Below are positions 16,801 to 37,801 of a stretch of DNA of 64,000 nucleotides, piece after piece; position 1 is the stretch's first letter; every line of letters begins with the position of its first letter. Source of the stretch: Eledone cirrhosa (taxonomy: Eukaryota); NCBI GenBank assembly GCA_964016885.1, contig OZ024745.1:75702001-75766000 (forward strand). Reading direction: 5' to 3'. The notes under the pieces were generated by a model. That model did no database searches and was not told the origin of the DNA. It was given only the letters and a program-made list of their open reading frames with translations. The translations under genes were made by a program, and so were the position numbers.

Positions 16801-17344
16801 AATGGATTTAATGCTCTGAAATAGCGATATATATGTGAAGACAAACATAGAATATTCGAAAATATTCTGTATGTTTATAATAAACATTTTGAAGACCCAA
16901 TCGCTATAGAATAGAATACGTCACGTATTACAATTTGAGATTCTCGATAAAAGCAAGGGAAGTAACCTACGCGTTTCATTCTTATTAGAAATCATCAGGA
17001 TTACATATCCAATGCTTTTATCGAGAACGACACAGCTAGAGACTTATAGAATACTTAGCTGTGTACAGGAACTGGTTTGAAAGAGCGGTAGCCGGTCCGG
17101 CAGAAATTAGAATTTGGATTTAATGCTCTGAAATAGCGATATATATGTGAAGACAAACATAGAATATTCGAAAATATTCTGTATGTTTATAATAAACATT
17201 TTGAAGACCCAATCGCTATAGAATAGAATACGTCACGTATTACAATTTTTTTCTAATTTCTGCCGGACCGGCTACCGCTCTTTCAAACCAGTTCCTGTAC
17301 ACAGCTAAGTATTCTATAAGTCTCTAGCTGTGTCGTTCTCGATA
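16801..17344. mobile_element. Family F retrozyme-like element: 1.4 tandem copies of a 312-bp monomer plus inverted arm
   Basis: 16803-16936 is identical to 17115-17248. 17251-17344 is the reverse complement of 17019-17112. (TA)n on both sides. Confidence 0.9.
16962..17004 (-). ncRNA. Minimal type I hammerhead ribozyme (family F)
   Basis: Minus strand: GTAATC CTGATGA tTTCT aata AGAAt GAAAC gc GTA GGTTAC. Palindromic ACGCGT stem III. 15-bp extension ttctcgataaaagca/tgcttttatcgagaa. Confidence 0.9.
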
Positions 17345-17888
17345 TATATATATATATATATCTGTATATATATATATATATATATATATATATGTATGTA
17401 TATATATATATATATATGTATGTATATATATATATGTATATATATATATATATATATATATATATATATATATGTATATATATATATATATATATATACA
17501 TATATATATATATACATATATATATATATGTATATATATATATATTTATATATGTATATATATATATATATATATATATATATATATATATATATATATG
17601 TATATATATATATATATATATATATATATATATATATATATATATATATATACATATATATATATATATGTATATATATACATATATATATATATGTGTA
17701 TATATATATATATATATTTATATATATATATATACATATATATATATACATATATATATACATACATATATATATATATATATACATACATATATATATA
17801 TATATATATATATATATATATATATACATATACATATATATATATATATATAAATACATATATATATATACATATATATATATATATA
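17341..17888. repeat. Long degenerate (TA)n microsatellite
   Basis: Read directly. Confidence 0.95.
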
Positions 17889-17975
17889 GAGAGAGAGAGG
17901 GGGGGGGAGAGAAAGTGGGAGAAAGAGAAAATAAAACAAGGACGATTGGTTATTCCGTCATTACGTTTATTGGTT

Positions 17976-18060
17976 GGTGACGCGCGTTTCGCCACTGATC
18001 AACTCAAGGTTCGATCTGTATCGATCTAGCCCGACTCTGTAATCCACGGCTCGTCAGACC
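17976..18060 (-). ncRNA. Type I hammerhead ribozyme (family K) with large stem II insertion
   Basis: Minus strand: GGT CTGACGA GCCgt[~50 nt]gtGGC GAAAC gcgc GTC ACC, followed by aaccAATAAA. Palindromic ACGCGCGT stem III. Confidence 0.75.
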
Positions 18061-18179
18061 CCTTACAATGGTAATGAAAAAAAATATATATATATATAAA
18101 ATAAATATGTCATGTCCGAGACATGCGCCATATCCACTGTAGAATAAGCTCAAAGATTCCAATGAATAGATCCGAGCAT

Positions 18180-18378
18180 TTTATATCAACCAGAAATTGA
18201 TTGACATATATATATATATATATATATATATATATATATATATATATATATAAAATAAACACATGAAACAATCACAGGGGATAATTTGTAAAGTGTGTAA
18301 GCAAATTACCCACTGTGATTGTTTCATGTGTTTATTTTAGATAGATATATATGTCAATCAATTTCTAGTTGATATAAA
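18180..18378. repeat. Fold-back inverted duplication containing an internal (TA)n
   Basis: tttatatcaaccagaaattgattgacata..aaaataaacacatgaaacaatcacag is mirrored by ctgtgattgtttcatgtgtttatttt..tatgtcaatcaatttctagttgatataaa. Confidence 0.8.
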
Positions 18379-18519
18379 TATATATATACATACACATATC
18401 TGTGTGTGTGTGTGTGTGTGTGTGTGTGTGTGTGTGTGTGTGTGTGTGTGTGTGTGTGTGTGTGTGTGTGTGTGTGTGTGTCTCTGTGTGTATGCGTTTC
18501 TGTAGCCTAGTAGTTCGAC

Positions 18520-33780: not shown

Positions 33781-34690
33781 TCTTTCTAATGTTCGTCGCC
33801 CATTAACTATCAAATGGTTTTATGCTAAAAAATAATCGTAATTTTTGTGGTAGTTTTTCGTCAATGTCTGACGTATATAATATACATTTTACGTGGTTTC
33901 TGTGAATGAGAGTCGTATTTCTTCCTGGTGGAATAATGGAACTAAACTTTGAAAGCTAAAAGATTACTCGATGAATTTACAGAGATGCCACAGCTTATAA
34001 AGATACGTTGCACCTCCTAGTGGTATTTGTAAAATATTAGAACATATTTCTGCTTGATCAGGGATGATCTGAGGGCTAAACGTAAACAATGACCTATAAG
34101 CTAACGAAGAGGCCTCTACATAGTCGCTTGACCTAGTATGAATAACAGTCAAATCTCCCACAAATCTCACTCAACTGTTTTAAAGGATGGGGGTGGACAC
34201 AAGATAATGTTCGATCCATTAAATATCCGACCTGTTAAATTAACCTGCAAATGGCTGAGTATTCCATAGATATATGCGTCCTTAGTGTAGTTCCTAAACC
34301 GAACCATGTGACAAAATATGCAAAAAAACTGTCTCTTTGAATTATACAGGAACAATCTACCCAAAAGAATTCTACACAATGTCACTTACAAAGCTTGGAT
34401 CAACCGAGTCTATGGTGAAAGATACTTAACTAAGATACCATGCAAACTATGCAGTAAGGTCGAACCAGAGAACTTATGATTACGAAACAAACTTATTGAC
34501 CTCTCAGTCGTGTATGCGTCCATGGATATACAAAAACATGGGATAATCAAGCTAGACAGTCTTTTGTTACACCCAATCACAACTTCCTCGGGCTAATCAA
34601 CAGCAGGTACAGCTTGTAAGCAGTACTAAACACATATCTTAAAGGAATCTCATATTCTCAGATGATAGCTTAAGTATCTTCATTTTACAC

Positions 34691-35066
34691 GAAGAAGAAG
34701 AAGAAGAAGAAGAAGAAGAAGAAGAAGAAGAAGAAGAAGAAGAAGAAGAAGAAGAAGAAGAAGAAAAAGAAGAAGAAGAAGAAGAAGAAGAAGAAGAAGA
34801 AGAAGAAGAAGAAGAAGAAGAAGAAGAAGGGGGTGGGAGAAGAAGGAAGGGGAGGAGAAGTGAAGAAGAAGAAGGGGTGGGAGAAGAAGGAAGGGGAGAA
34901 GTGAAGAAGAAGAAGAAGAAGAAGAAGAAGAAGAAGAAGGGGGTGGGAGAAGAAGGAAGAGGAGGAGAAGAAGAAGAAGAAGAAGAAGAAGAAGAAGAAG
35001 AAGAAGAAGAAGAAGAAGAAGAAGAAGAAGAAGAAGAAGAAGAAGAAGAAGAAGAAGAAGAAGAAG
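34691..35066. repeat. (GAA)n microsatellite with ggggtgggagaagaaggaag interruptions
   Basis: Read directly. Confidence 0.95.
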
Positions 35067-35842
35067 GTGACAATATCACCCAAAGACAAAGACATGCAGC
35101 TAAAGTATAACTTCCTTATTAACCAATATTTGGTATTTTTGCACAACACTCTTTTTATTACTCCTTGGTTTCGCTCCGATCCAATTTTCTTTAATTCGCT
35201 TACATCCCTCACAGACACACACATACACACACACGCGCGCACACATACGCGCGCACACACACACACTCACATGTACACATGTACAAATAAATATACAAGC
35301 GTCACATGTAAACAGCTAAACATATGTGTATGTGTGTGCGTGTAATGTATAATTATGTATGAGTATAGGCATACGTGTATGTATGCACACAAGTGTATAT
35401 GTTTATTTGAGATGTTTATATATATATATATATAATATTCATACAAACACGCATACACACACACTCATATATATATATAAACATATATATATATATAATA
35501 TTCATACAAACACACGCACACACGCACGCACACACACATATATATATATATATACATAATATTCATACAAATACACACCAACAACACACACATATATATA
35601 TATATATATACATATATACCCATATATATATATATATATATATATATATATATATATATATATATATATATATATATATTAGAATTGGTGCTCTGAAATA
35701 GCGATATATATATATGAATGTATATATAGTGTATTTTGCAATACACTGTATGCTTAATTAAAAGCATTTCGAAGACCTTATGCTATTGTTTTAGAGTAGT
35801 GACAGTCTCACTTACTTTAATTTTCAGCAAACAGGGGAGGTA

Positions 35843-35889
35843 AAGCTGATAGAGGTCTGTTTCGCATTTTGTTATGCTTATCAAAGCTT
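35843..35889 (-). ncRNA. Hammerhead ribozyme, U3-A8 core variant (family G left arm; stem III mismatch)
   Basis: Minus strand: AAGCT TTGATAA GCAT aacaaa ATGC GAAACAG acct CTaTC AGCTT. Confidence 0.7.
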
Positions 35890-36199
35890 ACTCCTCCTGT
35901 TTGCTGAAAATCATGAATGTTTGATTCTTATAGAATTCTTAGTAATAATCAGGAACTGATTATACAGAGCGGTTGCCGGTCAAGCAGAAATTGAAAATTA
36001 GAATTGGTGCTCTGAAATAGCTATATATATATGAATGTATATATAGCGATATAACTATATATATATCGCTATTTCAGAGCACCAATTCTAATTTTCAATT
36101 TCTGCTTGACCGGCAACCGCTCTGTATAATCAGTTCCTGATTATTACTAAGAATTCTATAAGAACAAACATTCATGATTTTCAGCAAACAGGAGTAGTT

Positions 36200-36244
36200 A
36201 GCTTTGATAAGCATAAAAAAATGCGAAACAGACCTCTGTCAGCT
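36200..36244 (+). ncRNA. Hammerhead ribozyme, U3-A8 core variant (family G right arm)
   Basis: AGCT TTGATAA GCAT aaaaaa ATGC GAAACAG acct CTGTC AGCT. Compensatory C3U/G8A change; all three stems pair. Confidence 0.85.
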
Positions 36245-37801
36245 TTATCTCCCCTGTTTGCTAAAAATTAAAGTAAGTGAGACTGTTACTACTCTAAAAC
36301 AATAGCATAAGGTCTTCGAAATGCTTTTAATTAAGCATACAGTGTATTGCAAAATACACTATATATACATTCATATATATATATATATATGTGTGTGTGT
36401 GTGTGTATGTATATATATAAACATGCATATACGTGTAGACATATCTATAAATAAATCTGTGTGTATATACATGTGTGTGTGTGTGCGTGTATATATGTAT
36501 GTGTATGCATATGAATGTGTATGTAAATATTTATGTATTTATATATACATATGTGTGTATATGTATGTGTGTGTATATATATATATATATACACACACAC
36601 ACACATATATATATATATATATATATAAACACTTTGATTTCATTGTTAATCTCTCTTGTGACTTTAAATCACATATCTTCTTTTTTTTGAGCCTATATAT
36701 ATATATATATGATGTATGTTTTATATCTTTCTGTCTCCTCTTATTTTGTCCTCTTTTCTTCTTCTTCTCATTATTATTATTATTATTATTATTATTATTA
36801 TTATTATTATTATTATTATTATTATTTTTGATTTCCTTCAGCCATCTTACACTTTACGTTTCTCCTTTGACAATATTTCCTTTCCTGTTTAGTCCTCTCG
36901 AAATTGCTACTCATCTTCTTAACTCGTCCTTCTTTCGCTTTTTACACCTAACTAGATACCCCTTTTCTCCTTCTTCTACTTCGTCTCCTTCATTTTTTCT
37001 CTTTCTTTATTTTCTTCCTCTCTTTGCTTTTTTTTTTATCTGGGATATCTATTTATTTTTGTTTTGCATTTTGTTTTTTTATTCTACCTTATTTCATTTC
37101 TTCTTCCTTATTTTTGTTGCCATCTTCATTTTTTTTTTTTTTTTTTTTTTTTTTTACCTTCTACTTTCCAATTCTCTATGAATCTATTTCTTCAAAAATT
37201 CCATTCTCTCTCTTTTATTTCATCGGTTGAAACTTGAAGAGATTTCCCAATAGAAATTCCCCAGCAGAAATTAAAAACGTAGAGTAAAAGTAATTTCTAT
37301 TCTAACACCTTTACAATGCATGGCTGCCGGCTCTCTTCGTTCCCTTTGAAAATCTAATCGTATTTTCAGATAAACAGCTATATATGCAGCGTGACGAATG
37401 CGTTTGTGGTTAACGAGTAGAAATTTCGAATAGCTTTCACAAATAAAGTACACATGTTATCAGCGTGCCGATGTCTTTCTTAGTGACTACACTGATAGGT
37501 GTTATTGTAAAAGTACAGCAGGTGCTGTTCTTATAACTCTGTGTTTGTCAAAGATGATACATGAAACTCTCCACAAACTAAACCTTCCTCTTTATCCATC
37601 ATTCGTTCACTTTATTCATTATTCATTAAACGATTTACATTATATTCGCCAGGAGTAATGTCTGGTTGATAGTATCAACAATAAAAAAAGACTAATAGAA
37701 ACATTGCTTCCTTTGTCCGATCTGATGACCAGCTACTTTCCTATAACTATATATATATATATATATATATATATATATATATATATATATATATATATAT
37801 A

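Follow-up and report, generated by a model that had tools for sequence, protein, structure and literature searches.

Evidence for compensated turnover of the hammerhead domain in two related families of predicted retrozymes from Eledone cirrhosa

Results

Two head-to-head insertions of related repeats

We analysed a stretch of 64,000 nucleotides of the Eledone cirrhosa genome (contig OZ024745.1, positions 75,702,001 to 75,766,000; hereafter the window), in which two short insertions, the F and G loci, represent related repeat families that carry predicted type I hammerhead ribozymes. The parts of the two loci, in window coordinates, are as follows.

16803..17340: F locus, a two-armed (head-to-head) insertion between (AT)n tracts; from the sequence, with microsatellites at 16762-16803 and 17342-17888.
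16813..17124, minus strand (ribozyme sense): full F unit of 312 bp; from motif spacing, many genomic copies being 100% identical.
16803..16812, minus strand: 3' tail of F, the first 10 nt of the next unit and then (TA)n; from the sequence, the terminus being of the same type as in other copies.
17125..17247, minus strand: 5'-truncated second tandem copy of F, 123 bp, without a hammerhead; from the sequence.
17248..17340, plus strand: inverted right arm of F, 93 bp; from the sequence, with GACCGGCTACCGCTCT on the plus strand at 17266.
35680..36390: G locus, a two-armed insertion between (AT)n/(TA)n tracts; from the sequence, with a microsatellite at 35592-35679.
35690..36008, minus strand: left-arm unit of G, 319 bp; from motif spacing, 97% identical to the right arm.
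36009..36050, minus strand: left arm of G, from the end of the preceding unit to the inversion junction; from the sequence.
36060..36385, plus strand: right arm of G, one unit, from TA tract to TA tract; from the sequence.

The F locus consists of one unit and the 123-bp partial copy, followed by the 93-bp inverted piece, and its right arm terminates within the 5' strand of the distal helix of stem I (see below), at a 547-bp (AT)n tract. The G locus comprises approximately 1.1 units (35680-36050) and then a full inverted unit (36060-36385). Both loci terminate 10 nt beyond ...CAGAGC. Motif spacings of 16813 to 17125 and 35690 to 36009 confirmed the monomer lengths of 312 and 319 bp given in the original prediction. 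The window is without a true tandem array, as each locus amounts to about 1.1 to 1.4 units together with an inverted copy. None of the 146 rows returned for the window by Tandem Repeats Finder (TRF) has a period near 312 or 319 bp, because the loci hold too few copies. The 21-mer GCTCTGAAATAGCGATATATA, with up to 3 mismatches allowed, occurs five times (at 16813, 17125, 35690 and 36009 on the plus strand and at 36060 on the minus strand; 0.00 expected), and GACCGGCNACCGCTCT was found four times against 0.08 expected. Together with gaagacc, cttatagaat and aggaactg..agagcggt.gccggtc..gcagaaatt, which form conserved blocks in the F/G alignment, these occurrences bear out the backbone that the two families had been proposed to share. 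The GC content is 0.29-0.35 around both loci, and neither of them is overlapped by a non-repetitive open reading frame (ORF).

Predicted type I hammerhead domains in the F and G units

Hammerhead domains were located in the F unit and in both arms of the G locus (MFE, minimum free energy).

16939..17029, minus strand: F type I hammerhead domain; R1 79.4 bits, Rfam Hammerhead_HH9 20.6 bits (E 0.017).
35819..35912, minus strand: hammerhead domain in the left arm of G; R1 87.9 bits, the non-pair being marked, and the fold.
36176..36269, plus strand: G hammerhead domain, right arm; R1 87.0 bits, Rfam HH9 21.4 bits (E 0.012), and the MFE fold.
16941..16955 with 17013..17027: distal stem I helix of F, 15 bp, exact; present in the MFE fold.
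35821-35835 with 35896-35910: distal stem I helix of the left G copy, 15 bp, exact.
36178..36192 with 36253-36267: distal stem I helix of the right G copy, with one mismatch.

In the F domain, the 5' strand of stem I is followed by CUGAUGA, helix II, GAAA, ACGCGU, a single A and the 3' strand of stem I; helix II is UUUCU/AGAAU with a U.U at its base, and stem III is the palindrome ACGCGU. The order in G is UUGAUAA, GCAU-loop-AUGC, GAAA and CAG[ACCU]CUG-UC. The right arm of G combines the core UUGAUAA (U3/A8) and the helix II GCAU/AUGC with the stem III ACAG[ACCU]CUGU. The left arm has the same core and helix II, together with a C.A mismatch in stem III and an AUC triplet, and its hammerhead is probably impaired. 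Cleavage is predicted to occur after GUA in F, between 16968 and 16967 on the minus strand, and after GUC in the right arm of G, between 36240 and 36241 on the plus strand. Helix I is built by the outermost strands in the model alignment, that is, it is open, as in type I hammerheads. The short stem I with an internal loop that had been described for both families was recovered (proximal stem I of 6 bp in F and 4 bp in G), and the perfect 15-bp distal helices were also found, save for the one mismatch in the right G copy. In the type I hammerheads of newt satellite 2 and Schistosoma Sm-alpha, the internal loop of stem I contacts loop II.

When the right arm of G was folded alone, the MFE structure was a three-way hammerhead junction (z -4.4). 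The fold of the F domain retained the 15-bp helix (z -6.4) and the F core was absent from the energy-only prediction, because stem III of F is too short. The right G copy also departs from the family majority: a change at 36233 disrupts the palindrome, and another at 36263 causes the mismatch in the distal helix; the majority letters are present at both positions in run X1, a set of contigs totalling approximately 1.4 Gb and taken as DNA. Each window arm carries only one hammerhead, and therefore no arm is able to release unit-length RNA alone; the window copies of F and G are probably dead-end insertions.

The inverted arms and long helices could conceivably encode small-RNA hairpins, such as hairpin RNA or microRNA-like precursors. 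Weak Rfam matches do lie over the inversion junction of G at 35979-36109 (e.g. MIR2630, 61.5 bits versus 144); however, all such matches are below the gathering scores, any inverted repeat or AT-rich hairpin typically gives matches of this kind, and this explanation would leave the NUH site and the invariant hammerhead core described below unaccounted for. We consider it extremely improbable. An E-value scan of the whole window against Rfam was dominated by microsatellite-driven matches of the microRNA-like type and was set aside.

F and G as members of a superfamily

Searching the 3.0-Gb genome gave at least 227 matches to F at 98-100% identity, arranged in arrays of minus-oriented and then plus-oriented copies (for example, C4:55884529-55886386 on the minus strand, followed by 55886481-55888040 on the plus strand); among the matches listed, 15 of 150 are terminal copies that contain positions 1-298 only. 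At least 140 matches to G, at 82-100% identity, are mostly dispersed and approximately 1.1 units long (one unit with short terminal overlaps), with one array of about 24 copies among the matches listed. The array units measure 312, 319 and 316 bp. Four backbone patterns written to exclude F and G gave 125, 441, 1342 and 1990 exact matches, whereas the reversed-pattern controls gave 0 each; one further backbone pattern aimed at more families had 0 matches in the genome. From 180 loci we obtained 159 distinct anchor-to-anchor segments, which fell into 23 clusters, namely G (78), H (25), F (18), I (17) and rarer types that include J and K, and 124 of the 159 were parsed into hammerhead parts. F and G are two families of a single superfamily, with homology over the full length of the unit, in which at least seven families (the others being H, I, J, K and G3) are built on a common backbone.

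The architecture is the same throughout the superfamily. In all families, stem I consists of a proximal part of 4-6 bp and a distal helix of 13-20 bp, separated by an asymmetric internal loop. Helix II has 4 bp and an A-rich loop, and helix III is short, the perfect palindromes of F, G and H being ACGCGU, ACAGAGCUCUGU and ACAAGGCCUUGU, respectively. The 5' side of the internal loop reads UAU, UAGUU or UACGU, and loop II is CAAAAA, CAACAA, CAACCA or AAUA. The core has C3/G8 in families F, I, I2 and G3 and U3/A8 in G1, G2, H, J and K. Conservation in the superfamily is highest in the 5' backbone (GACCGGC.ACCGCUCU...CAGUUCCUG; e.g. 17066-17110 and 35950-35995, minus sense), not in the ribozyme; identity in the 5' backbone is 73-97% between most families and only 54-59% for family J. 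The units end at their 3' side with ...CGCUAUUUCAGAGC (as a pattern, ...CGCTATTTCAGAGC.CCAATTCTAAT).

In run X1, k-mer depth, which was summed over many contigs and serves as a rough guide, rose to about 750,000 on F (16813-17124) and about 1,000,000 on the shared 3' backbone within 36062-36380. The genome match counts, which are lower bounds, may greatly understate the abundance of the superfamily. Contigs of two other organisms contained F at approximately 98% identity, with the hammerhead unchanged except for one base of loop II (16983); in the contigs of the same organisms, the G query matched only via the shared backbone of an F-like contig.

Conservation of the core and covariation of the helices

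Within the G copies, variation is distributed uniformly along the unit, with no additional conservation in the ribozyme. Copies within a family decay neutrally, and therefore only the comparison between families is informative. Two alignments were used for this purpose. The first (A2) contains 17 real copies representing the families, which were hand-picked after a helix-seeking parse. The second (A3) is a covariance-model realignment of 99 non-overlapping sources, which yielded 182 matches at E <=1e-5, of which the best 150 were aligned and 124 were distinct; being fitted to the model, A3 is biased towards the model structure. Both the selection of A2 and the fitting of A3 weigh against the interpretation given below. 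Partners slid along the alignment served as the control for pairing, to which 500 shuffles were added for A3.

The columns U4 G5 A6, A9, A13 A14 A15.1 C15.2 and G16.2 U16.1 are invariant in A2. Among the 124 copies of A3, the expected nucleotide is present in 122 (U4), 121 (G5), 122 (A6), 119 (A9), 120 (G12), 121 (A13), 123 (A14), 121 (A15.1) and 120 (U16.1) copies, and position 17 is C in 104, U in 11, A in 9 and G in 0; all tested core positions are intact in 92 of 124. Positions 3 and 8 vary jointly, as U-A in 83 copies, C-G in 31 and other combinations in 10 (Watson-Crick in 114/124), and the same pair in A2 is U-A in 11 copies, C-G in 6 and unpaired in 0. In A2, 90.9% of the cells are paired compared to 39-53% with slid partners, both sides have changed in 24 of 32 pairs, and the covariation score is 0.503 against at most 0.154 in the controls. 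The corresponding figures in A3 are 92.4% versus 38-50%, 25 of 31 pairs, and 0.436 against at most 0.115; the observed value was reached by none of the 500 shuffles on four measures and by 29 of 500 on a fifth. Single steps of this process are visible, as helix II passes within the G clade from GCAU/AUGC to GCAC/GUGC and then to GUAC/GUAC, and stem III of one copy has changed from ACAGAGCUCUGU to ACAAGGCCUUGU. In run X1, two pairs of helix II (36212/36223 and 36214/36221) vary on both sides at similar shares.

The catalytic core is nearly invariant across the families, and all helices vary with compensation. A conserved core and three covarying helices are consistent with a type I hammerhead. 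The proposal that structure had been conserved under sequence turnover is upheld by the pairs changed on both sides, and the structural alignment of copies that had been suggested as a check of it is now available in A3. Conversely, the statement that the ribozyme regions of F and G are unalignable was contradicted: MAFFT aligns F and G over the whole unit with the ribozyme at the same position, the core forms the invariant columns of the 17-sequence alignment, and intermediate families bridge F and G. The inference that all this strongly indicates function applies to the founders of each family but not to the window copies, which have a single ribozyme per arm and, in the left G arm, a broken C15.2-G16.2 pair.

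These data also bear on whether F and G are inert satellite or foldback DNA spread at the DNA level, in which the hammerhead would be a decaying relic with helices preserved by the youth of the copies. The 98-100% identity of the F copies, their long arrays and their very high k-mer depth in run X1 would fit such an origin, as would the even variation along G. Youth of the copies, however, offers no explanation for a core that is invariant between families or for 24-25 pairs with compensated changes. Moreover, there are hundreds of dispersed copies of approximately 1.1 units, which terminate at a fixed 3' position within (TA)n and are accompanied by an inverted copy truncated at its 5' side; this pattern fits reverse transcription, not unequal crossing-over. 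We regard a satellite origin as improbable.

Turnover of the ribozyme domain versus module swapping

Of the parts of the unit, the ribozyme domain evolves fastest. Mean identity between families is 63% in the ribozyme, 78% in the 5' backbone and 72% in the 3' backbone, and the corresponding values for F versus G1 are 55%, 78% and 67%. In 34 of 36 family pairs, the ribozyme was less alike than the backbone, the identity of the latter being weighted by length. An independent line of evidence agrees: on the G unit, summed contig depth in run X1 drops 10- to 60-fold over the ribozyme domain relative to the backbone. The backbone, unlike the ribozyme, is common to many families at >=80% likeness.

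One way to explain these values is that the ancestors of F and G, or F and G themselves, took up different hammerhead cassettes on a common backbone through recombination or template switching between co-expressed retrozyme RNAs. The much lower likeness of the F and G1 ribozymes than of their backbones is what a swap would produce, and in the deepest families (F, J and K) ribozyme and backbone point to different nearest relatives; the F ribozyme is closest to J (62) and I (60), and the F backbone is closest to G1 (71). Against this, the position and orientation of the ribozyme are the same in all families, lower identity is expected where only pairing is constrained, and the helix sequences grade in a chain, with distal helix identities of 11/15 for F-I and 9/15 for I-G, continuing from G to H, compared to 8/15 for F-G; where the distal helices differ, the majority sequences of the families show a compensating change on the opposite strand. 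The stepwise compensated change within the G clade (GCAU to GCAC to GUAC) points in the same direction. Relatedness in the ribozyme was concordant with relatedness in the backbone across nine families (Mantel r 0.78; 7 of 5000 permutations as high), although with one family per clade the correlation was not significant (r 0.55; 359 of 5000 as high), a result that favours the swap.

We conclude that compensated turnover in the ribozyme of a shared ancestor is the better reading of the difference between F and G, because the ribozyme has diverged more quickly than the backbone while the order of relatedness is the same in both. The module swapping that the original prediction had entertained is unlikely in view of homologous domains bridged by intermediates, although ancient swaps among the deepest families F, J and K may have taken place.

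Insertion footprint and Penelope-like elements

Insertions of Penelope-like elements (PLEs) are described, in the cited part of PMC8557442, as partial tandems with an inverted 5'-truncated copy, a tail of 30-40 bp and a bias for (TA)n. The insertions studied here are head-to-head arms with fixed 3' ends in TA microsatellites, and 17 of 30 distinct matches to the 3' motif are element termini that run into (TA)n, 12 of the 17 ending 26-28 nt after the start of the motif. The F and G insertions thus bear the PLE-like footprint, with a partial tandem, an inverted 5'-truncated neighbour, a short tail and a (TA)n target.

PLEs seem to be a major component of the source genome. A GIY-YIG search of the genome gave 10,595 first-look candidates, and all 150 that were scored exceeded the Pfam cut-off; all three long ORFs tested (613-1025 aa) carry RVT_1, with GIY-YIG at the C terminus. 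Identical minimal U3/A8 hammerheads were observed in the terminal repeats of intact PLEs, at 2919-2956 and 7898-7935 (minus strand) of locus L201, where they flank a 932-aa ORF at a distance of 4,979 bp from each other, and at 6099-6136 (plus strand) of locus L203, downstream of its 613-aa ORF. Their sequence is CCUU UUGAAAA GCAG-AAGAA-CUGC GAAAC CGGUA AAGG, with the palindrome ACCGGU. Rfam at gathering scores found nothing in the three PLE loci, and regular-expression hammerhead matches at 775-1775 of L201 were rejected as false positives on a 27-bp tandem repeat. Within the window, a 441-aa open frame at 62594-63919 (minus strand) matches RVT_1 (116 bits, E 2e-33) and has no GIY-YIG; as judged by these domains, it is a fragment of a reverse transcriptase of the long interspersed nuclear element (LINE) type and not a PLE.

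Other features of the window

A different hammerhead repeat family with the same layout occurs at 1510-1605 (minus strand) and 22948-23040 (plus strand), with R1 scores of 39.3 and 30.6 bits. It has the core CUGACGA, helix II UAGCU-AAUA-AGCUU, the stem III palindrome ACUAGU and a distal stem I helix of 21 bp; a 'MIR5649-like' match at 1491-1624 corresponds to the long stem I of the first of these copies. A hammerhead-like core at 14227-14270 on the plus strand (CUGAUGA, AGGGUAAUACCCA, GAAAC), found as a regular-expression match only, lies downstream of 33-bp repeats at 14065-14161 with the motif atatgcaaat..ggc.g.tcag, which is also present at 22890-22915.

The window is unusually rich in microsatellites, as its 146 TRF rows in 64 kb illustrate. 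Between the F and G loci, at 25800-30074, lies a 26-bp tandem array of 164 copies with 92% matches (GTATGATGTGACTACCTCACTATGAG), and a 2-kb (AT)n tract with a GC content of 0.09 occupies 54073-56090.

Discussion

F and G as predicted retrozymes

The data presented above make it probable, in our judgement, that F and G are self-cleaving repeats whose RNAs are likely circularised and likely copied into (TA)n by PLE enzymes. The model for retrozymes proposes tandem transcription, self-cleavage, circles closed by tRNA ligase and reverse transcription by PLEs (PMC7229834, in the portion cited; bioRxiv 10.64898/2026.07.22.740005, likewise). Applied to F and G, tandem units would be transcribed and the hammerheads would cleave themselves at GUA (F) or GUC (G), those of neighbouring units acting as dimers through the palindromic stem III. 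Dimer action would be obligatory in F, because its stem III amounts to 2 bp around a loop of 2 nt. The long stem I would then clamp the ends of the cleaved monomer (5'-OH and cyclic phosphate) in a nicked hammerhead, which the host tRNA ligase could seal into a circle, and PLE enzymes would reverse-transcribe the retrozyme RNA. In monomers cut in silico at the predicted sites, stem I closes the molecule (F, -73.7 kcal/mol, z -4.27; G, -71.2 kcal/mol, z -3.45). The cofold of G formed the extended intermolecular stem III, with -58.9 kcal/mol compared to 2 x -26.2.

Several observations weigh against this interpretation. No family passed the Rfam gathering score in the window, the best being Hammerhead_HH9 at 20.6 and 21.4 bits versus 52; the scores suffer from the length of stem I, the U3/A8 core and an atypical helix II or III. 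Helix II of F is weak, with a U.U at 10.1/11.1 that is found in 14 of 124 copies, and the cofold of F gave a domain-swapped dimer without the expected ACGCGU duplex. The tail extends approximately 26 nt from the start of the motif (10 nt past the unit boundary in the window copies), compared to the 30-40 bp of PLEs. In the search for an autonomous partner element, BLAST of F and G against the three PLE loci, which are three copies out of thousands of elements, detected only a neighbouring G copy and no shared backbone, and no PLE-type reverse transcriptase/endonuclease ORF was found upstream of the shared 3' motif in 30 loci (L091-L120).

Comparison with known hammerhead repeats

Non-long-terminal-repeat (non-LTR) retrozymes are described in PMC7229834 as elements of 150-450 bp that act as dimers and are ligated by tRNA ligase; two axolotl families have units of 330 and 350 bp and different hammerheads, one of which, like that of F, begins its helix II with a U.U at the base. 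The metazoan members, according to the same parts of that paper, resemble F and G in being non-coding, low-GC units with one type I hammerhead and self-paired monomers, in a short or palindromic helix III that implies dimers, in occurring alongside PLEs and in the presence of several families per genome. F and G, as ORF-less, low-GC units in the range of 150-450 bp with one type I hammerhead, self-paired monomers and co-occurring PLEs, thus match the genomic profile of non-LTR retrozymes, and the superfamily is an extension of this described class, not a new class. Compared to the metazoan retrozymes in the cited portion, the superfamily is distinguished by at least seven families on one backbone, which makes ribozyme turnover readable per family, by a long stem I (4-6 bp, an internal loop and then the distal helix) and by U3-A8 in most families; its cleavage and its circles are predictions.

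The hammerheads in the terminal repeats of PLEs share with the superfamily the U3-A8 in place of C3-G8, a covariation noted there also, the palindromic helix III and the dimeric design (PMC4209133, as far as cited), and the minimal hammerheads on both sides of the ORF in PLEs of the source genome match this terminal-repeat type. In contrast to these minimal hammerheads, F and G possess a complete helix I, interrupted by an internal loop, and a 4-bp helix II, which together form the canonical layout, are located in ORF-less units of approximately 315 bp and have no sequence in common with the three copies examined. Unlike PLEs as described in the cited part of PMC8557442, they encode no reverse transcriptase or endonuclease. 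Newt satellite 2 and Schistosoma Sm-alpha resemble F and G as type I hammerheads in repeats of approximately 330 bp with a weak helix III (as also summarised in PMC7229834), but their sequences are unrelated to those of F and G.

Implications

Stem III differs between the groups: F has ACGCGU, G has ACAGAGCUCUGU, H has ACAAGGCCUUGU and the PLEs have ACCGGU. One could envisage, as a speculation to which we give rather little credence, that the ribozyme helices serve as tags of family identity, the dimer and closing helices being driven to diverge so that RNAs pair, cleave and circularise within their own family. The backbone (the GACCGGC block and the 3' end ...CGCUAUUUCAGAGC) would then stay constant as a shared handle for the borrowed reverse transcriptase. 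If true, this would account for the faster evolution of the ribozyme domain relative to the non-catalytic backbone.

Animal retrozymes are known, yet the evolution of their ribozymes is poorly documented. A single genome here provides at least seven families on a common backbone, thousands of copies, compensation at nearly all base pairs of the hammerhead and a natural switch from C3-G8 to U3-A8, and these form a comparative set for asking what role the long stem I has in cleavage, ligation and circularisation, and which part of the RNA a Penelope-type enzyme recognises.

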